A DNA stretch of 64,000 bases from a virus: the IMG/VR virus record IMGVR_UViG_3300025174_000005; one strand, written 5' to 3'. Below are positions 3,001-61,513 of the stretch, piece after piece; position 1 is the stretch's first letter, and each line of letters opens with the position of its first letter. The notes below the pieces were generated by a model, which worked only from the letters and a program-made list of their open reading frames with translations, ran no database searches and was not told the DNA's origin. A program made the translations under genes and the position numbers.

Positions 3001-3991
3001 CTATTGGTGTAAAGTTAATATAGATTGGATGCTCATATGGATGATTTATAGTAATTGAGTCTTGAGTGTTAGGCCACTCCGTATGATGTATTAGGAATAG
3101 AGAGTTAGCTAATGCATGCCTTAAGCCAGCTTCCGTAGCATTACGATTAAATAAATAAGCATCGCTTAATCGCTTTTGATATTGTTCGTTAGTCTCTCCA
3201 CTAACACGAGGTTCGCTTAATAGTAATCCTATTTCATCATATTCGTTGAAGATATGATGTCTTACTGGCTTATATGATATAGAATTTATCTTAATATCAG
3301 TGTATGACTTACGAAATACTAGTTGTAAACTACTGGCTCCAAATACCTCTTGCTTGAACGCGATATCGTATGTGGTGTAATGAACTTTAAATTCCTGGTC
3401 TAACGGAATAGAGCCGTCCGTAATAACTATTCTACCACGATACTTGCCGCCAGTTAATATATTACTAATTGTGTATTGCGACGAGGAGAGATATATGTCG
3501 TTAAATGATACCCACTCTACTAGAAGATTATCTGTTAGTATATCTATGCCTATTTGTCTGTCAAGAATTAAAGTAGCTGTGCCAGGAGATGTAAAAGTTT
3601 GTATGCTTGCTTTACCGTAGATAAAATCGTGGAACCGATCTACTACATCTATATCAATTGTATCTGTATTACCAGTTAATGTAGTAATACTGAGTGTGGC
3701 TGCAATAATTACACTATATATAATGTCTAAAGATGTATTTGTGTAATTGGGAAATCTAATATATGGATTACGTACGATCTCCTTAATATCTTGTCTTAAC
3801 TCTTCTTGAGTGAGAGCTATAGCATTTACAAGTTTAATTGCATTGGACGTAATTGTTGAAGGAATAATTATATCAGTAAAGGGAAAGTTCTTACGCGCTG
3901 CCGTAAATGCAGGTAAGGCGCCAATAAGTGCCTGGAGTTCCTTAGATACAGGATATTCTGTAGATGATAATGTGCGAATGTTATGAGGCAT
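2..3991 (-). CDS. Large baseplate wedge / tail-fibre attachment protein (>1330 aa, truncated at left window edge)
   Basis: Missing from the ORF track. ATG at 3991 (MPHNIRTLSS...); the segments I spot-checked are open and the frame appears to run off the edge. Contains the wedge-type motif FNEYDEIGLLLSEPRVSGETNEQYQKRL and repeated VxVNGQLQ..N.DY.E.D modules. Confidence 0.7.
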   Translation of the reverse strand, partial: MPHNIRTLSSTEYPVSKELQALIGALPAFTAARKNFPFTDIIIPSTITSNAIKLVNAIALTQEELRQDIKEIVRNPYIRFPNYTNTSLDIIYSVIIAATLSITTLTGNTDTIDIDVVDRFHDFIYGKASIQTFTSPGTATLILDRQIGIDILTDNLLVEWVSFNDIYLSSSQYTISNILTGGKYRGRIVITDGSIPLDQEFKVHYTTYDIAFKQEVFGASSLQLVFRKSYTDIKINSISYKPVRHHIFNEYDEIGLLLSEPRVSGETNEQYQKRLSDAYLFNRNATEAGLRHALANSLFLIHHTEWPNTQDSITINHPYEHPIYINFTPIEVFKYLTVQDISSGGVLNPDNSITWIVPLVPASHTPVELNFNIEYSGETPLHTSYIPISMNKMINIAYITPVDVPIRILPTQNIFRTNNNYIQGTLRVFVDGIEVNTVELGYNTFELNNDLDEDQIISCTYISANDRLMVDLDERHCNIALLTKPIISTRADIYVNTTYPQLDLEHKLAFNPNELRLDHIAKTTISLLNLGRVDATNVAVTVHLWDPIEVTTTSTSANECSITPTCPTSITLTDNLQLRDREIRYISCEDITVHDFSDQDYYKSTLLNADGTTTRELRGFAHELTQASPLIWGQVIWDKSYWGSLKERVQTIGFTPNAIDPDLSSFPIDNLLIPLLFTATVEDIVVLPESIGDFLISPDGSFWEVVVDNDGALGLELADTSVVIPPSPPVGPINIFKYLDIGRKRDFHSGVGDFDDLLVSVDQLLKKRHLDEFPTDIVKDIAYHVDYTDYLAKWWVMLNRGWYYINDQKSYMFAEPNTLTFENIDSFTISTKDLQDNFPVLVSLVDIDTSGNTIKTPLRQVNFCDENYNPTLWFTEEICGNGRDNQLYLSFTDIEALTLDGVNTSAIDNIITLDSYECIPTSACFTANYRLRDSYIVNYESGLVNLSQSYSRIEVTHETSDGLHNTNLALNPLFNPHTNGFVYLTDEDAIPTKLTCRVSPNSFRTNVRQVAIVTVELLDVNGTPIPNAVVNFRRTRSRVLETIVGLPTPVTSPSPIKVVSDNLLSDPTNKKLKLFHPYELGTDTLFVWVNGQLQIINRDYTELDINTIEFTNLLNAGDWIYTRIRLDDVKREKHTVVGGQTEIFLSNTFELDTWKLMVYVNGQLQRLNADYVEVDNTTVMFNYELNEDDTIETHIVSDTIYDSTYIYAANQQIVNVTPFVPGKGLLMVYVNGQLQRLNKDYIEANTSSIKFNYKLNISDWVFVRQYVPAVDSPEVGNPIDPDRQLITIDEVNDTATDEYGRAYWYMDIYENTYGIMPIEVNVTTYNPDFT

Positions 3992-3999
3992 ACGTTCCC

Positions 4000-4812
4000 T
4001 TAAGTTACGTTAATAGTCCCAGGTATTAAAAGTTCATCCTCATTAGGGATGTAATCTCTAAATAAAACCAGGTCTTCGTTAATACGCATCTCTGTTATAT
4101 TAATATCTAGAATATCAGAAGAAGTATTGAGTGAAATACTAATAAGCTGATCAAAAATAATTGTATCGCCAAGAGATAGTGTATCTATGTAATTAATAAT
4201 ATTTAATTTAACAGCTTCTCTTAATGCTGGTCTACTTGCAAGATTAGTGTCTTTTCTAAACAATACTTGTAGGTTAATGTCTACTGCCATCTCTATGGGC
4301 TTAGTAGCTATGCCATATACACCAAGAGCCTTATGTTCATCTATAACCTGTTGAGTATTGGCTAGTTCCATATCAGATAATGGACCTGTTTCTGGCAGCA
4401 CAAATACCTGAAAGCTTCCAATACCAAATGTGAAATCTCTTACGATAGCATCTCTGATATTATCCAAAACAAGTATTTGTAATCTTATGGCTGTAGCATT
4501 AGTATCAGCGAGTTCAAGTACTTGGTTGGTAATTCTAAATCTGAAGTTATCATCACGCTCGTTAGGCATACGCTTGATAGCAAATAAGTCACCTAGACCA
4601 TCTAAGAATACACCCTCAGCTCTAGATATTAGACTTTGTGCTAAGCCTATATCAAAATCTGTATATAGTTGTCCAAGAGTAGTATTAATACTGCGAAGTA
4701 TCTCTCTAACAAATGTACCTCGTGTATTTATTTTCTGTAGATCAGTGTTTGCGATTATGCGAGCTATTGCATTAGCATCTAATTCTTCTACGCTTCTTCT
4801 GATTATAGCCAT
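4000..4812 (-). CDS. Baseplate wedge protein (baseplate J-like)
   Basis: AEGVFLDGLGDLFAIKR..E.DDNFRFRI motif; position in the baseplate cluster. Confidence 0.7.
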   Translation of the reverse strand: MAIIRRSVEELDANAIARIIANTDLQKINTRGTFVREILRSINTTLGQLYTDFDIGLAQSLISRAEGVFLDGLGDLFAIKRMPNERDDNFRFRITNQVLELADTNATAIRLQILVLDNIRDAIVRDFTFGIGSFQVFVLPETGPLSDMELANTQQVIDEHKALGVYGIATKPIEMAVDINLQVLFRKDTNLASRPALREAVKLNIINYIDTLSLGDTIIFDQLISISLNTSSDILDINITEMRINEDLVLFRDYIPNEDELLIPGTINVT

Positions 4813-13605: not shown

Positions 13606-16600
13606 TTACCTTTTATGAAGTAGATGTAGTAATTCATCTTCAACTGTTTCTTTGATTTTCTTGCGGTGATCTTGTGATGTGATATGAATATTGGTTGGCA
13701 TTTGAACTTGAGATAGTGATTGACCAACCAATTGATGTAGTTGATCGGGGTCTATATCTCCTCTGTCGCGGGCCCTAATGCGCACTTTATACGCATTACC
13801 TCCCTTACCTGGTACTGTCTCATCCATAATACGTGTTGTGCCACCTACTGATGGACTAGCTGGAGGTGTGTAAGAACCATCGGGCATAGGTGTCATGTCT
13901 GGACCAGGTGCTATCATATCTGGTTTGAGTTCACGTTGACCTAGTTGTAGTGAAGAAGAAAGTAATCCCGCACCTACGACAGCTGTAGCTAAACCACCTA
14001 ATCCCCATCGCGCGGAACGAGGTAAGCGCATAAAAGCATTCTCTATCATATCAATAGCTTTTCCTGGCTTAGGACGAATTGTTTCAGCAGCCTCAGCTAC
14101 TCCAGAGGCTGCATGAGCCCCTACACTACCAGCAACTTCTTCTGTGATATCAGCTGCAGCAGTGAAGCTACCCATAAGATCTTGTAGCTTAGCTCCAGAA
14201 CGTATCTGGCGTAATCTTTCTGACATAGGTAGATGAGCGTATTGTTCTGTTAGATTACCTATTAGAGAACTTGTTTGTTGATAGTGGCTTTCTATTACAC
14301 CTTGTTCTGCGCCATGCTGAATACCTCTATCTAATCTACGTCTCCATAAATCTGCTTCACTAATAATAGTTTTTGCTTTAACTTCTTCTATAGCTGATTC
14401 AGGAGCTATACCTTCTACAAATGCCTGGGCTTGAGCAGAACGCAGTTTCTCATTTAGCTCTTCTGCTGTACCTACCATTTTAAACTTAGCTCCGTGGGTT
14501 TCCATAGACTGTAGGATTAACTCATGCATACCTCCAGTTTCCCCAAGGGGTTTTACTTTAGCATAGTATCCTACTCCACGACTAAGAGCATATAGCTTCT
14601 CTTGATTCTGGCGCATAAGTTCTGCAGACTTCTCAGGTATGGCTGCCCATGGACCTGCTTCAAGTGAAGCACCTGCCGATAAGATCTTTCTACGACCTGG
14701 CTCACTCGTAAGAACGTCCATAATATTCTGGGCTCTAGACGGTGAAGGTATTGCAGTAGCTTGAGGACCTGTTGGTATTGCTGTTATTGGTGTTGTTGTT
14801 ATTGGTGTTGTTGGTATTATTGGTGCTGTTGATGGTGCTGTTGGTAATGCTGTTCGTAGTGCTGTTGATAATGCTGTTGGTAATGCTGTTGATGGTGCTG
14901 TTCGTCGTGCTGATGGTGCTACTGTTGGTGTTGGTATTATTGGTGTTGTGGATTTTATTGTAGATTTTAGATGTGTTGTTGTAATAAACTTTTCTCTAGC
15001 TCTTTGCTGTATACTAGTCATCTGCTTCGCAGCTATATTGTATTGCTCTATACCCACCTGTTCAAATGCTGCAGACTGAGCACTCATTATATCATGTAGT
15101 ACGGCTACGTCTCTGGCTGCATACTGGTATCGTTGTTTTGATAGCCTACCACCCCACTTAGATTTTTGTGCTTCTTTAGGCAAGGAAATGTTTAAATATT
15201 TAGACGCAAGATATCCTAGGTTAGATTTACCATACTTAGTTTGACTAAGAACCTGCTCTGCCACCATAGGATCGTATATCTGCCCACCGATTTTATATCC
15301 TTCGCCTAATAAAGCTTTGATATCAAATGGAGCATTTTGTATTATTTTAGGTCTAGAACTAGCGAGGAACTCAGTTAAAATAGATCTACCCTTTTTAGGT
15401 AGTTTAAGGAGATCTACAATACCAACAGGTCCGCCCTCAGCTGAAAGCTGAAGCAATCTAACTCTCTCTATTGCTTCAGAAAATGCTGTTGTTTCTGTAT
15501 CTAATGCAATATGACCAGATGATGGTAGACTCTTAAGGAATTCTTGTAACCCCTTAGCTGTAGTAATACGCTTGTATTGAACTGACTTAGGCTGTAATAC
15601 TTGTTGAGGCATTGGCCCAACAAAAGGTTTAGCATAGGATTCAAGAGGGTTTGTAGGTTGACTGGGTAAATTTACAATGTCTTTGGGTGATTTACCACTA
15701 GCTAATATTCTCTCATGCCCTACAAATTGCTTAGCTATATCTTCACGCTGTTCAAAAAGAGCTTGCATTTTAGGTGTGCCATATAGCTCACCAGCTTCGC
15801 GATGTTGTTGTATTAGTTGCTCTATGTTGGCTAACTCTTTAGATGCTTGCGATGCTTTAGCACCAAACTCAGATACTGTTTCTATTTCTGACATACCAGA
15901 TCTTATATAATCCTGCCATGCTGCCATTTGTTGAGCAAAATCTAATGTAGTAGATTTTGCTAGCTTGAGATATGCTTTAGATCTATATCCTGGTGCTTGC
16001 GTAGCAGCACGAGTTGCAATTTTCTGTATTACTTTACGAAATTCATCAAACTCCGCAACCTCAGCAGTATGACCCTTAACTAGTTTTAATATGTCTTCAG
16101 AGTGTCTAAATTTCTGATAGGAATATATTGCTTGTGGGTGTGTCTGACGCATGTAGGACTCGAATGCTGTTCCAAATACATCAGCTTCTGATAGTTGTGT
16201 GGGTAGGGCTGTTTCTGCAAGAGGAGATATGGACTTAGGACTAAACTGAAAAACTGTTCCCATACCAGATTGTATTTCCCTTTCTCGTTGAGAAAGGGGT
16301 CGTAAGACATCCATTGCCTCCATCTTTTCACGAGACATCACATTAGCAGAAGCCAATTCTTGTGTTAAATCTCTTTTTGCACCAGCTTCTATTATATTAC
16401 TTGTTTGAGCCAATAAGTTACGATCTACCTTAGGAGAAGATGTAAACTGAGCTAACCACGAACCCATCATCTTAAGAGGACGCTCGTGTATCTCCCAGGC
16501 CATACGCGCCTTACTAGAACCAGTCACTACTGTACGGTACCCCTTAAGAGTTTCCTGTACTTCTTCTCCAAAAGAGGGTAAGATTTTCTCAAAGATATGT

Positions 16601-54984: not shown

Positions 54985-55104
54985 TCTATGGTTGCGGGCT
55001 TAACCCCAACCACGGGGTGTAGGTGGGAGGTGGCTTGCGACACCGATGATGAGGTCTATGTAAGACCTGACCGTGAGGCAGGCTGTAGATGAAAGGAGTA
55101 TAAT

Positions 55105-55341
55105 ATGAGTATTTGTAAAGGTAGAGAGCTTTACGACGCCATCATGGAATGGTGTCAGAACCCGCCCGCGGGGTTCACTGGATGGGTAGGCTATGCCTAC
55201 CCGTCCAGCTGCGCAGCGTGCGCAGCTGAAAAGATTGAATGCACGAGTTTTTACATTCACAGTAACCTCGGCCAGTGCGTTAATGTTGTAATAAAGGGGA
55301 AGGAGGATCTCGGCGCATTCTACGCCGAGGTCTCTGAGTAA
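55105..55341 (+). CDS. Small Cys-rich early protein
   Basis: GAAAGGAG RBS; followed by a terminator. Confidence 0.65.
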   Translation: MSICKGRELYDAIMEWCQNPPAGFTGWVGYAYPSSCAACAAEKIECTSFYIHSNLGQCVNVVIKGKEDLGAFYAEVSE

Positions 55342-55351
55342 AGTAAGTTGG

Positions 55352-55391
55352 GGGGAAGGGAGAGCTTACAAGCTCTCCCTTCCCCTTTTTT
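55352..55391 (+). terminator. Intrinsic terminator
   Basis: GGGGAAGGGAGAGCTT-AC-AAGCTCTCCCTTCCCC followed by T6. Confidence 0.85.
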
Positions 55392-55448
55392 GCACCCACC
55401 AAGTGGGTGACATTACGCCGCTTAACAGCGGCAGAAAGTAGGTATTAT

Positions 55449-55616
55449 ATGATGAGTTTTGAAAGTTGGATCGAAAAGAGATACTCGGGTTGGGAACCCG
55501 AGTTAGTCTGGGGGCTTTTGGACAAGCTCCCAGAGTATGTCTGGGAGTTACGCTCGCGATATCATCGCGAGCAGCTTTCAGAAGCTGTTCGCCTTCGAAA
55601 GGAGGTGAGCAAATGA
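55449..55616 (+). CDS. Small hypothetical protein
   Basis: MMSFESWIEKRY...; its stop overlaps the start of the next gene. Confidence 0.5.
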   Translation: MMSFESWIEKRYSGWEPELVWGLLDKLPEYVWELRSRYHREQLSEAVRLRKEVSK

Positions 55617-55777
55617 TCAGGGACCTGATTGATGAGTTGTACCTGGAGGCAGCCCCTTGCTGGGGCTGCCTCCAGCAGGTAGACCAGGACTATGAGTCCT
55701 GGTCGGAAGACCTCGTTCTTACGGACGAGGATATCAACGCGATGTACGATGAGTACATCGCGCGAAAGGAGGGATAG
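55613..55777 (+). CDS. Very acidic 54-aa protein with CxxC
   Basis: RBS GAAAGGAGGTG; MIRDLIDELYLEAAPCWGCLQQVDQDYESWSEDLVLTDEDINAMYDEYIARKEG. Confidence 0.7.
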   Translation: MIRDLIDELYLEAAPCWGCLQQVDQDYESWSEDLVLTDEDINAMYDEYIARKEG

Positions 55778-55847
55778 TTAGGACTGAGCTTACGAGGTAG
55801 TGACCGCCTCGTTAAATAATGGTCACGAGAAAGAGAGGTGAGTAAAT

Positions 55848-56051
55848 ATGTTAAGGTTGTTAATTTGTATTTTTATAGCAGTACTAGGTTGGTTCCTTCG
55901 AAAGAAGGACAACCTAATTGGTACCACCCTCTTATGGGTGGGGTTGGTGGGAGCAGCTTGTGTGCTGCTCCCATGGTTGGGAGGAGTGCTTGTAGTACTC
56001 CTCCTATTAGGAGGAGCAGGGTTTGTTGTTGATATATGCAGCAAGCGGTAG
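55848..56051 (+). CDS. Small multi-TM membrane protein
   Basis: AAGAGAGGTG RBS; three hydrophobic segments; architecture like 58912..59154. Confidence 0.65.
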   Translation: MLRLLICIFIAVLGWFLRKKDNLIGTTLLWVGLVGAACVLLPWLGGVLVVLLLLGGAGFVVDICSKR

Positions 56052-56079
56052 CTTGCTAGATTAGAAAGGAGGGATATTA

Positions 56080-56298
56080 ATGGAATACTTGTTTAAGTTC
56101 GTGCGCTGTCAGTACAGCGCACGAATGATGTTTATCACTAACCCAGAATGGGTTAGTGATCTAGGATACAACCCTGAAGTAATAAAGGGTTGTATCCTGA
56201 AAGCAATCTGGGCACTTTATTTGCCCAGATTGTATGATGGAGCCCTAATAAGATGTGACTGGATATGGTATCTAAGTCACGTCTCAACAAACAACTAA
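56080..56298 (+). CDS. Hypothetical protein
   Basis: GAAAGGAGG RBS. Confidence 0.65.
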   Translation: MEYLFKFVRCQYSARMMFITNPEWVSDLGYNPEVIKGCILKAIWALYLPRLYDGALIRCDWIWYLSHVSTNN

Positions 56299-56314
56299 AG
56301 AAAGGAGGTGAAAT

Positions 56315-56494
56315 ATGAGAATATTATCATCAACTTCTATGGTGGAAGTTGATGATATAGACTTCTGCACTGTATGTGGAGAAGTAGGTCTCCTGACATC
56401 TTGTCAGGAGATGGGCGTATGCGTTGATTGTGCATACGATTGGGGGTGGGTAATAGCCTGCCCCCTGGAAGACGACTACGAGGATTACTCGTAG
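56315..56494 (+). CDS. 59-aa acidic zinc-finger-like protein (not in the ORF track)
   Basis: RBS AAAGGAGGTG; MRILSSTSMVEVDDIDFCTVCGEVGLLTSCQEMGVCVDCAYDWGW...EDDYEDYS; two CxxC motifs. Confidence 0.65.
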   Translation: MRILSSTSMVEVDDIDFCTVCGEVGLLTSCQEMGVCVDCAYDWGWVIACPLEDDYEDYS

Positions 56495-57164
56495 TCTTCG
56501 GAGCGGTAGAGGCTTGTTTAGCTCTACCGCTCCCCTTTTTCCTCCCAACAGGGGTGCTTCGCACCCCCCTCCCTACTTCCTCTTACCTCAAGCCTTCGGC
56601 TCCCCTTGTCTATTCCTATTCCAACCTACCCTTATCTACTACGCCTTCGGCGCCCAACGTTGATAATACAACATCCGTTTGAAAAACCACATCCAATAGC
56701 CACGCCAGTTTTTGACCACGTAGCAGAGCCATTTTTTGCCTGTCCTTTAGATGTCGTTCCCTGTAGCTGAGGTAGTCTCAAGTCAATGGTAGAGCCATTC
56801 TTAAAAACCACCTTATTGGTACTCATCTCTCAAAAACAAATGGCTTTAATCCAGGGTTTTCTTTCAAGGCTTATATAGGGAGTTATTTTATGCCTCATAT
56901 ATAACCCTTAAAGAACCTCTTAGTGCTCCCATCAGGGGCCTTCGGCCCCTCTTCCCTATCCAACTTAACCTTATAGTATAAGTTGATAGCCTATACATGA
57001 GGATACTATTCCCCCCCACTAACCTTGATGTTGTAATAATAGTGTCCCGACCAGAGGGGCTAAACCCCCTCTGCTCTCCAGCTACAACACCTAAAAGAGG
57101 GAGGGGAGGTGCCACCATCAACTCGCCTCCTCGAGCCCCCCTCTTTAGCTTCCCTCTGTCTCAT

Positions 57165-57406
57165 GCCTCTTTCTTCCCCTTACTTCTCCTCATCTCTTTA
57201 CCTCTTTCTTTTAGTCAGCAGCTGCCTGCTGCCTTAAAAAGCAAAGCACATGGGGCAGACATTGTCAAGACAAACAGCGTATCTTGACAATTCAGTTCCT
57301 TGTCTGCCCCATGTGCACCTACAATATCCAAGGCAGCAGGCATCTAGCTGCTGCCAAAAGGAGGTAAAAAAATGAGCTTTATAGAAGTTAAAGGGAAAAA
57401 AGAAGC
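57165..57406. repeat. Large imperfect inverted repeat (mirror-image RBS/start units) around a core palindrome
   Basis: Arms 57165-57235 and 57330-57406 align; inner 16-bp perfect IR at 57246-57261/57301-57316; core TTGTCAAGA-N11-TCTTGACAA at 57262-57290. Confidence 0.8.
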
Positions 57407-57737
57407 GAGCCTTATCGGGCTCGCTAAGGGTTTATTGGCTCGCCCTTTGGGCGAGCTAATAGAAAGATTTAATGCTGAGAAAGGGAGCGTAAGCTCTCCT
57501 GTAATTATTACAGGAGAGCTGGCTGAGATCTTTGATCTCAGCCCAGATGCGTGCGTCTGGACTGGGATCGGACTTGGTCCCAGGGACACGGGGAACCCGT
57601 CCCCGTGGATTACAATAAAGGACGGTGAAGAGTTCAAACTCTACACCGTCCAGTTTGGACGGTACGGAGGAGCTCGCGTGAGTGAGCTCCTCCAGGAGCC
57701 TAAAAAGGCTCCTGGAAAAATCAAGCCTAGTTTCTAG
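57372..57737 (+). CDS. Hypothetical early protein
   Basis: AAAAGGAGGT RBS; GC-richer codons; followed by two hairpins. Confidence 0.7.
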   Translation: MSFIEVKGKKEASLIGLAKGLLARPLGELIERFNAEKGSVSSPVIITGELAEIFDLSPDACVWTGIGLGPRDTGNPSPWITIKDGEEFKLYTVQFGRYGGARVSELLQEPKKAPGKIKPSF

Positions 57738-57746
57738 GCTTGATTT

Positions 57747-57774
57747 AGCCGAGGGCATTAGCCCTCGGCTTTTT
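57747..57774 (+). terminator. Intrinsic terminator
   Basis: AGCCGAGGGC-ATTA-GCCCTCGGCT followed by a T run; an A13 tract follows at 57780-57792. Confidence 0.8.
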
Positions 57775-57807
57775 AATTCAAAAAAAAAAAAAGAAAGAAG
57801 GCGTAAA

Positions 57808-57844
57808 GTTTCAATCCCTTACTGATCAGGTCTCATTTTTCTAC
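57808..57844. CRISPR. Solitary CRISPR-type repeat unit 1 (not an array)
   Basis: GTTTCAATCCCTTACTGATCAGGTCTCATTTTTCTAC, 37 bp. The reverse complement ends in GGGATTGAAAC, the canonical 8-nt crRNA handle ATTGAAAC. Confidence 0.7.
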
Positions 57845-58038
57845 TTTTTCTACGGAAGATGAGAGTGGGCGGGTAGGATATCTACCACCTGCCCTTTTCT
57901 GTTCGTGGGGAAGATAAGTCTGTGGATGACAGGGTGTTTTGCATACGGTGTGCAAGCATCCTGTTATGTATCTTGGTAAGACCACCTAAGTTTGTATTGT
58001 TTAGGTGGATATTATGGATAAAGAAAGGAAGTGTAAAT

Positions 58039-58416
58039 ATGTTTATTAATATCAGCAACCACCCATATGGGAAATGGTCAATAGAACAAAGAGAAGGGGT
58101 AAAAGGGGATATATTAGATATGCCGTTTCCGCAAGTTGACCCCTCCTTAGACAAGGAGGGGATTAGTAAGTTAGCTATGGATATGATGTATCAGATAGGA
58201 GAGATCCTTGATATTAAGGGGTTATCCCCCTCTCAAGTAATCCTCCATGTAATGGGGGAACAATCGTTATTTTATACTTTAACTCATATGTGTAAAGAGT
58301 TAGGGTATAAAGTAGTAGTATCTACCTCCCGCCGCGAGGCGGTAGAGAAAATATTGACGGATGGTACGGTCGAAAAGACCGCCATCTTTAAATTTATTCA
58401 ATTTAGGGAGGTGTAG
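58039..58416 (+). CDS. Csx20-like CRISPR-associated Rossmann/CARF-type protein, putative cyclic oligoadenylate ring nuclease
   Basis: Start set at MFINISNHP (GAAAGGAAG RBS). N-terminal S-N-H-P..W..EQ, DMPFP.VDP, HVMGE, and C-terminal STSRREAVE....DGTVEKTAIFKFIQFR match the Csx20-type ATTxR..vE..DG.V....F.(H/F)V.FR pattern as I recall it. Confidence 0.7.
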   Translation: MFINISNHPYGKWSIEQREGVKGDILDMPFPQVDPSLDKEGISKLAMDMMYQIGEILDIKGLSPSQVILHVMGEQSLFYTLTHMCKELGYKVVVSTSRREAVEKILTDGTVEKTAIFKFIQFREV

Positions 58417-58420
58417 AAGT

Positions 58421-58642
58421 ATGATAAAAAGCAAAATTAGATATTTTGAAACGGTCTCCGAAGAGGAGATCGTTCGTCACGAGCTCCATCAGAAGCTCGC
58501 TCAGGGGTATGTATTATCCCCTGAAGAACAGGGGATGTTGGAGGAAAGGTTTGATCATCTTCGGCTTCCAGCCGAAGATAAGTTTAATAAGGTGGTTGGT
58601 GCGCTCGAACAGGAGCGCACAAAAAGAAAGGATATGTGGTAA
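58421..58642 (+). CDS. Hypothetical protein (73 aa) in the repeat-flanked cassette
   Basis: GGGAGGTG RBS before MIKSKIRY. Confidence 0.65.
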   Translation: MIKSKIRYFETVSEEEIVRHELHQKLAQGYVLSPEEQGMLEERFDHLRLPAEDKFNKVVGALEQERTKRKDMW

Positions 58643-58646
58643 AACA

Positions 58647-58829
58647 ATGAATTTATATGAAGTTACAATAGTTTATCCTGTAACATTTACGGTAAAAGCA
58701 AATAATTTTTCATCTGCAGAAAGTATTGCTCTTGAATACTCTGATAGAGTATTTGAATCTTCTTCAATATCTCCAGTTCTCTCGTCTATAAACATTTCTG
58801 AAAAAGAAGGGAAGGGTATCAATGAATAA
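58647..58829 (+). CDS. Hypothetical protein (60 aa) in the repeat-flanked cassette
   Basis: MNLYEVTIVYPVTFTVKANNFSSAESIALEY, a common small phage beta-alpha pattern; AAAGGA upstream. Confidence 0.6.
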   Translation: MNLYEVTIVYPVTFTVKANNFSSAESIALEYSDRVFESSSISPVLSSINISEKEGKGINE

Positions 58830-58834
58830 ATTAA

Positions 58835-58871
58835 GTTTCAATCCCTTATTAATCAGGTCTCATTTTTCTAC
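58835..58871. CRISPR. Solitary CRISPR-type repeat unit 2
   Basis: GTTTCAATCCCTTATTAATCAGGTCTCATTTTTCTAC; 35/37 identical to unit 1, same orientation, both intergenic. Confidence 0.7.
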
Positions 58872-58911
58872 TGTTGATGGTGCTGTTAACGGAAGAATAG
58901 GAGGTTAAATC

Positions 58912-59154
58912 ATGAAATGGTTAGTACCTTTATTATTCGTAGTGATGGGTTGGTTGATATTGAAGATAGGAGGTAAAGATGATCCTCTTGGGAAAGGGAT
59001 AGGAATATTTATGTTAATAGTGGGATGTATTATGTTTGGGTGGATTATTTGCCCCCACCTAGTACTTCTAGTACTAGGTATACTGATAATAGCGGGTATG
59101 TATAAAGCGATTCAAAATATATTAGGTTCTGTTTCAAGAAAGGGTGGTGTATAA
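58912..59154 (+). CDS. Small multi-TM membrane protein
   Basis: GGAGG RBS; three hydrophobic segments. Confidence 0.7.
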   Translation: MKWLVPLLFVVMGWLILKIGGKDDPLGKGIGIFMLIVGCIMFGWIICPHLVLLVLGILIIAGMYKAIQNILGSVSRKGGV

Positions 59155-59157
59155 GAC

Positions 59158-59376
59158 ATGCTTTGTGAGATTTGCGCGATAGGTGAGGTTTTTTCTAACA
59201 ATATATGTATGGATTGTTATGAAGGATTTAAGGGAATTTGTATTATGTGTGATAATAAGTTGAAAGGAGAGTATGATATAGGTGCTTGTGAAGAATGTAG
59301 GTATGAGACCGCCAAACAACTGTCTCCCACTAGACAGACAGATATGGCAGAGAAAGCAGAGAAAAAGGAGGAATAG
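59158..59376 (+). CDS. Small protein with four CxxC motifs
   Basis: CEIC, CMDC, CIMC, CEEC. Confidence 0.65.
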   Translation: MLCEICAIGEVFSNNICMDCYEGFKGICIMCDNKLKGEYDIGACEECRYETAKQLSPTRQTDMAEKAEKKEE

Positions 59377-59379
59377 ATC

Positions 59380-59661
59380 ATGTTAACAGCTGATAAACAG
59401 GCAGAAGCAATATTACTGATGGAACATACTAAGTTGGGGCATATAGTATTAACCATAGAATGTTCCAACGGCAACCATATAGGTCTAGTATTGCTAGAAG
59501 GTAGCCAGTGGATACTTGATCGTAAGCTGGCACAGGTTCATGATTTAGAGCATAATAAAACATATGAATTATGGCGCTGCAAGTCATGTAAAATTACAGA
59601 ACATATTTATTCTATAGGCGACCCATGTTGTGAAATAAGATATAGAAAGGGAAGTGATTAA
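59380..59661 (+). CDS. Hypothetical protein
   Basis: AAGGAGG RBS; CKSC motif. Confidence 0.6.
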   Translation: MLTADKQAEAILLMEHTKLGHIVLTIECSNGNHIGLVLLEGSQWILDRKLAQVHDLEHNKTYELWRCKSCKITEHIYSIGDPCCEIRYRKGSD

Positions 59662-59944: not shown

Positions 59945-59976
59945 GTTTCAATACGCTATGGATATGAAAGGAAAAG

Positions 59977-60264
59977 ATGGTGTTAAAAATCAATACAGCT
60001 CTTCTATTGGCACTAGGCGCTCAACAATATGATATAAATACATATAACCGCCTTATGATGCCAGCAAAAGATAAAACGAATATCTATAAGATTCTTGAGT
60101 ATGTAAAAAAAATGCCACCTATTGATGAATTTGGTAATAATATTCATCATTGGGCATGCTGGTTAGTTGTTGGACTATATCTAAAGATAGAAGATGAAAA
60201 TAAATATGAGTTTTTAAATAGAGCCAAGAATTTACTTGGCTTCCATGATTGGAAGATTAATTAA
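59977..60264 (+). CDS. Hypothetical protein
   Basis: GAAAGGA RBS. Confidence 0.6.
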   Translation: MVLKINTALLLALGAQQYDINTYNRLMMPAKDKTNIYKILEYVKKMPPIDEFGNNIHHWACWLVVGLYLKIEDENKYEFLNRAKNLLGFHDWKIN

Positions 60265-60589: not shown

Positions 60590-61459
60590 ATGCTATCTGA
60601 ACCATATAAGGGGCCTACGGGTTCAGGAACAGACGAATTAGGTATTGTGTATTATAGTGCTGTTGATGATGCTGTTAGTAGTGCTGTTGGTAGTGCTGTT
60701 GATGATGCTGTTAGTAGTGCTGTTGGGATAGCTGTTGATAATGCTGTTCGTAGAGCTGTTCGTAATGCTGTTGATAATGCTGTTGATAATGCTGTTCGTG
60801 GTGCTGTTAGTGATGTTGTTAGTGATGTTGTTGATAGTACTGTTGGTGATGCTGTTGGTGGTGCTATTGGTAATGCTGTTCGTCGTGCTGTTAGTAATGC
60901 TGTTGGTAATGCTGTTGGGATAGCTGTTGATGATGCTGTTAGTAGTACTGTTGGTGATGCTGTTGGTAATGCTGTTGGTAATGCTGTTGATAATGCTGTT
61001 AGTAGTGCTGTTGGGATAGCTGTTGATAATGCTGTTGGTAGTGCTGTTTTTAATGCTGTTGGTAATGCTGTTGGTAGGGCTGTTGGTAGTGCTGTTGATA
61101 ATGCTGTTGGTAGTGCTGTTTTTAATGCTGTTGGGATAGCTGTTGATGATGCTGTTCGTAGAGCTGTTCGTAATGCTGTTGATAATGCTGTTCGTGGTGC
61201 TGTTAGTGATGTTGTTAGTGATGTTGTTGATAGTACTGTTGGTGATGCTGTTGGTGGTGCTATTGGTAATGCTGTTCGTCGTGCTGTTAGTAATGCTGTT
61301 GGTAATGCTGTTAATAATGCTGTTAGTATTGCTGTTAGTAATGCTGTTAATGGTGCTGTTAATAGTGCTGTTGATGATGCTGTTCGTAGAGCTGTTGGTC
61401 TAGCTGTTGATAATGCTGTTGGGATAGCTGTTCGTGGTGCTGTTGATGATGCTGTTTAG
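60590..61459 (+). CDS. Protein made almost entirely of AVxx tetrapeptide repeats
   Basis: AAGGAGGTG RBS; 22-aa leader, then about 66 AV(D/G/S/R)(N/D/S/I/G/R) units. Confidence 0.6.
   Translation: MLSEPYKGPTGSGTDELGIVYYSAVDDAVSSAVGSAVDDAVSSAVGIAVDNAVRRAVRNAVDNAVDNAVRGAVSDVVSDVVDSTVGDAVGGAIGNAVRRAVSNAVGNAVGIAVDDAVSSTVGDAVGNAVGNAVDNAVSSAVGIAVDNAVGSAVFNAVGNAVGRAVGSAVDNAVGSAVFNAVGIAVDDAVRRAVRNAVDNAVRGAVSDVVSDVVDSTVGDAVGGAIGNAVRRAVSNAVGNAVNNAVSIAVSNAVNGAVNSAVDDAVRRAVGLAVDNAVGIAVRGAVDDAV
60656..61456 (+). repeat. 12-bp minisatellite GCTGTTNNNNNN with an internal ~165-bp duplication
   Basis: Tandem units; 60743-60916 repeats at 61151-61312, differing by one 12-bp unit. Confidence 0.95.
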
Positions 61460-61476: not shown

Positions 61477-61513
61477 GACGTTGTCAAGACAAACAACGTA
61501 TCTTGACAACGTC
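61477..61513. promoter_or_regulatory. Second copy of the TTGTCAAGA-N11-TCTTGACAA palindromic operator-like element
   Basis: 61481-61509 matches 57262-57290 at 28/29; extended to a 13-bp IR GACGTTGTCAAGA/TCTTGACAACGTC. Confidence 0.75.

Follow-up and report, generated by a model that had tools for sequence, protein, structure and literature searches.

Solitary CRISPR repeats are known from phage genomes, and some of them are proven RNA anti-CRISPRs. The locus analysed here raises the question of what such repeats do when they face against the genes around them: whether they act as RNA, from which strand that RNA would come, or whether they are remnants of recombination with CRISPR arrays. The window, by which we mean the whole stretch of 64,000 nucleotides that we analysed (IMG/VR virus record IMGVR_UViG_3300025174_000005), contains two of them, SRU1 and SRU2 (Table 1). 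They are genuine solitary type III CRISPR repeats, and together with the Csx20-like gene that they bracket they form a putative anti-type III island. They are probably anti-CRISPR tools.

Table 1. Features of the repeat-bracketed cassette and its surroundings, and solitary repeats of the same family on other viral contigs.
Feature	Position	Strand	Remarks
Upstream gene, 121 aa	57372..57737	+	strong ribosome-binding site; no family match
Intrinsic terminator	57747..57775	+	10-bp GC-rich stem, then TTTTT
SRU1, solitary 37-nt type III CRISPR repeat	57808..57844	- (crRNA-sense, ...GGGATTGAAAC)	24/26 core match to host repeat
Structured intergenic region, leader of csx20-like gene	57845..58038	+	57865-58010 folds far better as plus RNA
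Candidate sigma-70-like promoter TTTACA-17-TAATAT	58009..58037	-	predicted start ~158 nt upstream of SRU1, crRNA-sense
Csx20-like protein, 125 aa	58039..58416	+	HMM match, CARF/SAVED-like predicted fold
73-aa ORF inside the cassette	58421..58642	+	no family match
60-aa ORF, last gene of the cassette	58647..58829	+	stop codon 5 nt before SRU2
SRU2, second solitary repeat	58835..58871	- (crRNA-sense)	26/26 core match to host repeat
SRU2 right flank	58871..58904	+	minisatellite 17-mer, then GGAAGAATAGGAGG
Downstream gene, 80 aa	58912..59154	+	hydrophobic; 54% identical to L071 homologue
Candidate promoter TTGAAT-18-TATTAT	59086..59115	-	inside gene 58912-59154; ~208 nt upstream of SRU2, crRNA-sense
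Repeat on contig L078		coding strand (GTTTCAAT-type)	between 145-aa ORF and helicase gene
Repeat on contigs L080/L082		coding strand (GTTTCAAT-type)	after lysozyme gene
Repeat on contig L081		coding strand (GTTTCAAT-type)	
Repeat on contig L084		coding strand (GTTTCAAT-type)	
Repeat on contigs L079/L083		sense orientation	after transglycosylase gene
Repeat on contig L133		ambiguous	between convergent genes
Matches on contigs L098, L142			may be coding, or chance matches

The window belongs to a contractile-tailed phage (it encodes a large terminase, a portal, and a tail sheath), and both repeats lie in its early region. The minus strand is filled with large genes from 1 to 53458; from about 55.6 to 63.9 kb the plus strand carries small ORFs with strong AGGAGG-type ribosome-binding sites, and the minus strand offers only two weak candidates. 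Independent gene calls in four other assemblies of the same phage again place the flanking genes on the plus strand; these assemblies are identical over 55039-59583 and therefore provide no useful polymorphism. Contigs of 59-180 kb carry the phage, identical over this interval, in many samples of soil, sediment, and groundwater, and all 20 runs found for 57300-59200 are DNA from soil, sediment, or groundwater metagenomes, with no RNA run among them. A Megablast search of 55-64 kb against deposited phages gave no match, Rfam and tRNA scans gave nothing, and Pfam and PHROGs gave nothing usable for the ten small genes around the repeats. The hydrophobic product of the gene downstream of SRU2 is probably a membrane protein, and the 73-aa ORF of the cassette is kept beside the csx20-like gene in two relatives, L071 and the phage of contigs L074-L077 (hereafter L074).

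Several other elements mark this early region. A 33-nt palindromic element with TTGACA halves is present in two copies (57258-57290 and 61477-61509, 94% identity), each upstream of one of two early transcription units, and is probably an operator. A non-coding element at 56653-56858 shares 85% identity with positions 4882-5042 of L074 and 73% with L071, a much stronger conservation than that of the genes beside it, and many small hairpins of the GCCTTCGGC type surround it. An ORF built of repeats with a 12-bp period (60590-61459) encodes 289 aa here; its length is 201, 141, and 157 aa in assemblies of other samples that are otherwise the same.

The two repeats are identical at 35/37 positions, where shuffled sequences are expected to give 0 matches. 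Both mismatches lie in the hairpin loop, as do the two core differences between SRU1 and the host repeat. The 11 nt at the sense 5′ end of SRU2 are those of SRU1 (the phage copies have GTAGAAAAATGAGAC at this end) and differ from the commonest host repeat; read as the last 11 nt of the plus strand, they match it at 5/11 positions, yet the variation among host repeat tails covers them. The loop and these 11 nt contain every difference from the host repeat, and what each unit conserves is precisely the Cas6 hairpin together with the 8-nt tag. The repeats match a cas-linked array, are borne by a phage, and are the only two copies in the 64 kb, 1027 nt apart; they also retain the structure and sequence by which a processing nuclease recognises a repeat. 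SRU1 begins 33 nt past the plus-strand intrinsic terminator and ends 195 nt ahead of the start at 58039. SRU2 follows the stop codon at 58827-58829 by 5 nt and ends 40 nt short of the next ATG at 58912. The preliminary description had placed the canonical handle ATTGAAAC on the minus strand and all flanking genes on the plus strand, and this is what we find for both units.

The borders of the two units differ in detail. The motif GGAAGAATAGGAGG after SRU2 (58891-58904) is common to the SRU1 flank and overlaps the ribosome-binding site of the next gene. The 17-mer at 58871-58887 is the phage's own 12-bp minisatellite, found exactly at 14826 and 14886 and in eight one-mismatch copies at 60.6-62.6 kb. 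SRU1 has instead a 9-nt tandem duplication at 57836-57853. Both features sit at the sense-5′ boundary of the repeat, which is the normal site of spacer integration, and precede a shared GGAAGA. A third candidate unit on the minus strand (59945..59981) was discarded: it consists of the ATTGAAAC 8-mer, which alone is expected 2.55 times per window, plus chance-level similarity (15/26 core and 1/11 tail positions relative to the host repeat), and is for this reason not counted. We also rejected a mini-CRISPR array, i.e. repeats separated by a spacer of about 25-60 nt, as the interval here is 990 nt and holds three ORFs.

Which CRISPR system do the repeats imitate? Array repeats that agree with SRU2 at every one of its first 26 nt occur in two Candidatus Aerophobetes MAGs and about 50 metagenome stretches; among genomes scanned at one per species, only two Candidatus Aerophobetes MAGs had the first 23 nt. 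Of the 50 stretches obtained from metagenomes, most are arrays of this repeat family. In one of the Aerophobetes MAGs, an array of eight repeats adjoins cas6, at L016 2829-3782, and csm1/cas10, the latter encoding a Cas10 with HD and GGDD motifs, and the host system matched by the repeats is of type III. None of the 235 spacers of the matched arrays has a match to the window beyond 14-18 nt, and the spacers thus offer no direct sign of targeting or of a host link.

The strand on which the phage repeats are crRNA-like depends on how these arrays are transcribed, and the direction of the host arrays had been set beforehand as the deciding check on the antisense claim. The arrays run towards ...ATTGAAAC, not in the GTTTCAAT direction, and four lines of evidence concur. 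About 25 arrays share a conserved sequence of at least 160 nt that abuts the repeat end reading ...CTTTCAGAC and behaves like a leader, which answers the comparison with the host leader that the preliminary description had called for. At the opposite end of the arrays the repeat is degenerate in its first five bases, as in a trailer. The 235 spacers are purine-rich when read in the GTTTCAAT direction (mean 0.562; 174 vs 51, p about 1e-16), the coding strands of the window phage scoring 0.53-0.56 for comparison, and ribosome-binding sites followed by ATG occur among them 12 times in this direction vs 4 in the other. Since type III crRNA must be complementary to mRNA, this purine bias implies transcription of the arrays in the opposite direction. 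The host cas6 and cas10 genes run as leader, trailer, and spacers imply. In addition, a variant of this host repeat ends in ATTGCGAC, the proven type III tag of Thermus thermophilus. The host crRNA thus ends in ...GGGATTGAAAC, and the crRNA-sense strand in the window is therefore the minus strand, with the genes on the plus strand. With the arrays so oriented, the earlier proposal that plus-strand mRNAs including the units would carry the complement of the repeat, anti-tag included, stands, and early mRNAs that run through the units, as is almost certain for SRU2, would carry the anti-repeat.

The host loci have features of their own. Four of them (L027, L053, L022, and L026) consist of many short tandem arrays, each with its own conserved leader of about 160 nt or more. 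Two trailer-side spacers of an Aerophobetes array (L016, 4191-4300) both cover a ribosome-binding site and ATGGC(A/C)GAAGTA, so the start of the same gene family was targeted twice. Full or degenerate repeats bracket a toxin-antitoxin cassette of about 1 kb, with a PIN_2 toxin and a 73-aa partner, in one host locus (L001, 3727-4745), and a pair of HEPN and minimal nucleotidyltransferase genes, also of about 1 kb, is bracketed by repeats in another (L031, 7324-8285); the genes of both cassettes run in the crRNA direction. Adjoining host arrays at three places (L001 4709, L020 1366, and L050 112) there is a 23-nt repeat head followed by a conserved non-repeat stretch (...CACATCAGATTTGAGAGATGAGATAGAGA), which may be a crRNA-like regulatory RNA.

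The gene bracketed by the phage repeats points to the same type of immunity. The Csx20 model NF040559 matches residues 65-124 of the 125-aa protein with 40 bits against a curated cut-off of 70 (E = 4.3e-10), and all 46 aligned homologues match it, likewise below the threshold. A precomputed table lists the protein as PF27247, with 1589 relatives, and given the score below the NF040559 cut-off we file it as Csx20-like (PF27247) and not as Csx20 proper. Its AlphaFold2 model (pLDDT 97.6) has a CARF/SAVED-like, Rossmann-type fold, and the best structural matches are SAVED/CARF cyclic-oligonucleotide sensors and the ring nucleases Sis0811 and Sso2081, with Z scores of 5-8.4 that are middling but consistent in theme. 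For Csx20 itself, cA4 ring-nuclease activity is proven, and a few phages are known to carry it (Hoikkala et al. 10.1101/2024.09.24.614671). The 125-aa protein is a candidate cA4 ring nuclease and as such a candidate type III anti-CRISPR. As the repeats bracket its gene, what lies between them is a likely type III anti-CRISPR plus two small ORFs. We found no Csx20-like ORF in the host CRISPR loci examined or in 31 Aerophobetes genomes (incomplete MAGs), and capture of the cassette from a host CRISPR locus is accordingly unsupported. The nearest non-identical homologues lie on contigs too short to reveal what surrounds the gene.

The distribution of the repeats among related phages is uneven. 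L074 has a csx20-like gene 73% identical to that of the window and two units, with GTTTCAAT on the coding strand, at positions differing from those in the window: one precedes an unrelated 103-aa gene, and the other lies beside a 5′-truncated csx20-like gene. Compared with the window, its cassette is on the other side of the conserved non-coding element. The truncated gene (3880-4249) lacks about the first 26 codons, the break falling 33 nt past the solitary repeat, and an internal ATG serves as the start of the called ORF, which encodes 82 aa. Neither the relative L071 (71% identity) nor the more distant L073 contains a solitary unit. The two copies within each of the two phages share their tails, and copies compared between the window and L074 are identical at 33-35/37 positions vs about 70% for the neighbouring coding DNA. 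A first pattern scan of IMG/VR gave no match, and later scans gave the contigs listed in Table 1, with a bias of the scan pattern towards well-preserved cores. With the window and L074 taken as a single lineage, five of seven lineages carry the repeat antisense to the local genes, one carries it in sense, and one is ambiguous, i.e. four of the six others are like the window. This antisense excess is suggestive, not significant.

We prefer, at a probability of about 0.35, the explanation that the units act through a Racr-like sense RNA transcribed from internal promoters on the minus strand (58037-58009 and 59115-59086). As the repeat faces against the operon, such an RNA needs a promoter of its own. 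Host Cas6 would bind the sense RNA and cut it 8 nt from the 3′ end of the repeat; this would titrate Cas6 and would also free tag-bearing decoy RNAs that could load into Csm complexes. The only complement of these decoys would be the phage's own plus-strand mRNA, where the full anti-tag would be read as self and would leave Cas10 off, and the putative ring nuclease would clear the cA4 still made. Placement antisense to the operon would, at the same time, spare the polycistronic early mRNA from cutting by Cas6. We count in favour of this Racr-like RNA the identity of the repeat and its type III context, its orientation, the putative ring-nuclease neighbour, the candidate promoters, and base pairing specific to the sense strand. 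The two promoters score at percentiles 0.93 and 0.97 (the top 7% and 3% of the sequence windows scored), with the caveat that the host consensus may differ from sigma-70. The four best minus-strand sigma-70-like sites of the 10.5-kb early region all fall within 58009-59115, a clustering observed post hoc in AT-rich DNA. The motif at 59086-59115 is absent from the homologous place in L071, the relative without solitary repeats. As for pairing, G·U and A-U pairs found in the sense RNA alone lengthen the repeat hairpin of the phage copies, and the T-to-C change of the second L074 unit preserves a U·G pair there but not in the antisense RNA.

Other observations count against the Racr-like RNA. Promoter-like sites are not enriched in the region (28 found vs 30.9 expected from shuffles), the sense-strand scores for the units of L074, L078, and L081 are at percentiles 0.26-0.45, with no good site, and the plus strand folds better. 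The proven in-operon RacrIC1 is also co-directional with its acr gene, and here 5/7 lineages have the opposite arrangement. We rejected a general sense-strand sigma-70-like signal across all lineages (p about 0.06 in a rough, hand-worked Fisher combination).

In an alternative, which is the idea of the preliminary description in a workable form, the anti-repeat in the plus-strand early mRNA is itself active: a perfect 26-nt complement would form duplexes with pre-crRNA or crRNA intermediates, the Cas6 site would be hidden or exposed to double-strand RNases, and fewer functional crRNPs would result. We consider this unlikely. Such masking of the Cas6 site on pre-crRNA is possible given the complementarity at 26/26 nt, and the anti-repeat is transcribed without any extra promoter, SRU2 being flanked, within one operon, by a stop codon and the ribosome-binding site of the following gene; just upstream of SRU1 no plus-strand promoter was found, and terminators upstream of SRU1 and of the second L074 unit may keep plus transcription out. 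The intergenic region folds at -57 kcal/mol as plus RNA vs -36 as minus RNA (z -4.2 vs -3.1), with GGAAGATGAGAG (57854-57865) pairing with the SRU1 tail through G·U pairs. In the plus RNA, which is the more structured of the two, this tail pairs with the downstream GGAAGAUGAGAG motif by G·U pairs available to that strand only; motifs of related sequence, GAUGAG or GGAAGA, come after SRU2 and after the first L074 unit, and SRU1 has a terminator on one side and a second hairpin, with TTTTCTG behind it, on the other, much like a small plus-strand RNA gene. The same predicted fold, however, buries most of the SRU1 anti-repeat, crRNPs that are already mature would be untouched, and a literature search gave no precedent. 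The orientation is the same in L074 (two units), L078, L080/82, L081, and L084 and is sense only in L079/83, but this bias comes from few lineages (roughly 5-6 vs 1) and is also what the purging of sense copies would leave. Equally unlikely is the idea that phages place the repeat antisense in early operons on purpose, as a tracrRNA-like anti-CRISPR that would block or misdirect pre-crRNA processing beside a ring nuclease, with the 5/7 lineages as its signature. Mimicry of self by the anti-tag would add local protection only. Tag:anti-tag pairing spares only the protospacer abutting the anti-tag, hence one register per unit, and each repeat would thus shield no more than about 37 nt (57770-57807, a non-coding stretch, and 58797-58834).

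The loss of sense copies is part of a further explanation, which we hold to be somewhat improbable but less so than an active antisense RNA: the units could be DNA-level relics of recombination between phage and host arrays, serving at most as short homology borders that move the ring-nuclease cassette between phage genomes. In-operon sense copies would then have been lost, since Cas6 would cut the mRNA, leaving the antisense ones. The erratic distribution fits such an origin, as the units are absent from the close relative L071 and at non-orthologous positions in L074, where the csx20-like gene is truncated at a unit, and synteny breaks at every unit. The minisatellite 17-mer at the SRU2 boundary resembles a spacer remnant, SRU1 has its boundary duplication, host arrays themselves hold repeat-bracketed cassettes of about 1 kb (the PIN_2 and HEPN-MNT toxin-antitoxin pairs), and array recombination has been proposed in the literature for solitary repeats. 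Against inert relics, the four copies in the two phages keep 24-26/26 core positions vs about 70% identity in the neighbouring coding DNA, a contrast that calls for selection or for very recent capture on several occasions. Every copy is a full-length unit, 26-37 nt is little homology for efficient recombination, and the lack of a Csx20-like gene in the host loci and Aerophobetes genomes mentioned above leaves capture from such a locus unsupported. That the units are something else altogether seems quite improbable.

The Racr-like sense RNA that we favour has clear counterparts among known systems, and clear differences from them. Like RacrIF1 and RacrIC1 (Camara-Wilpert et al. 2023, PMC10651486), the units are phage solitary repeats that mimic a host repeat, lie between genes, and neighbour a gene of anti-CRISPR type. 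Racr candidates cluster with acr genes, and RacrIC1 is 11 nt after acrIC5, as SRU2 is 5 nt after the last cassette ORF (PMC10651486 for the Racr data). The proven Racrs concern types I-F, I-C, I-E, or V-A and are crRNA-sense, RacrIC1 being on the acr transcript; the units described here are of type III and face against the operon. The neighbouring protein resembles AcrIII-1/Crn2 and Csx20 in being a small, phage-encoded, CARF-related protein from a cA4-degrading family, and the likely host has a cyclase-competent Cas10. AcrIII-1 is of the DUF1874 family, whereas the protein of the window belongs to the Csx20-like branch (PF27247). As far as we could find, bracketing of a ring-nuclease gene by CRISPR repeats, as seen here around the Csx20-like gene, is undescribed.

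An active anti-repeat would find its closest parallel in the tracrRNA of type II systems, as an RNA complementary to the CRISPR repeat that could pair with pre-crRNA, although the analogy is functional only: tracrRNA is a product of the host that acts together with Cas9 and RNase III in favour of maturation, whereas the anti-repeat would be phage-encoded, directed at a Cas6-processed type III array, and inhibitory. The plus-strand mRNA also carries GUUUCAAU, the exact complement of the 8-nt crRNA tag AUUGAAAC, as in type III tag:anti-tag discrimination, but in that mechanism the anti-tag must directly follow the protospacer, and a solitary unit shields one register and not the phage. Virus-borne mini-CRISPR arrays similarly have repeats on a viral genome without cas genes; here 990 nt and three protein genes separate the repeats, with no spacer-sized interval.

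All proven Racrs known to us are crRNA-sense and none is of type III, nor do we know of a type III Racr that has been experimentally tested. Our analysis adds that 1) the direction of the host array is fixed independently, and the phage copies are reversed relative to their early operon and bracket a putative ring-nuclease gene; 2) the same reversed orientation recurs in most other viral contigs with the repeat family; and 3) the units are unusual as Racr candidates in being of type III, antisense to their own operon, and paired with a putative ring nuclease. If the antisense RNA is active, these phages would have a new way of disarming CRISPR. If the units are relics, they document exchange between the genomes of phages and the CRISPR arrays of their hosts. 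A hidden sense RNA, should one be made, would to our knowledge be the first Racr of type III, and its partner would be a protein that degrades the second messenger.
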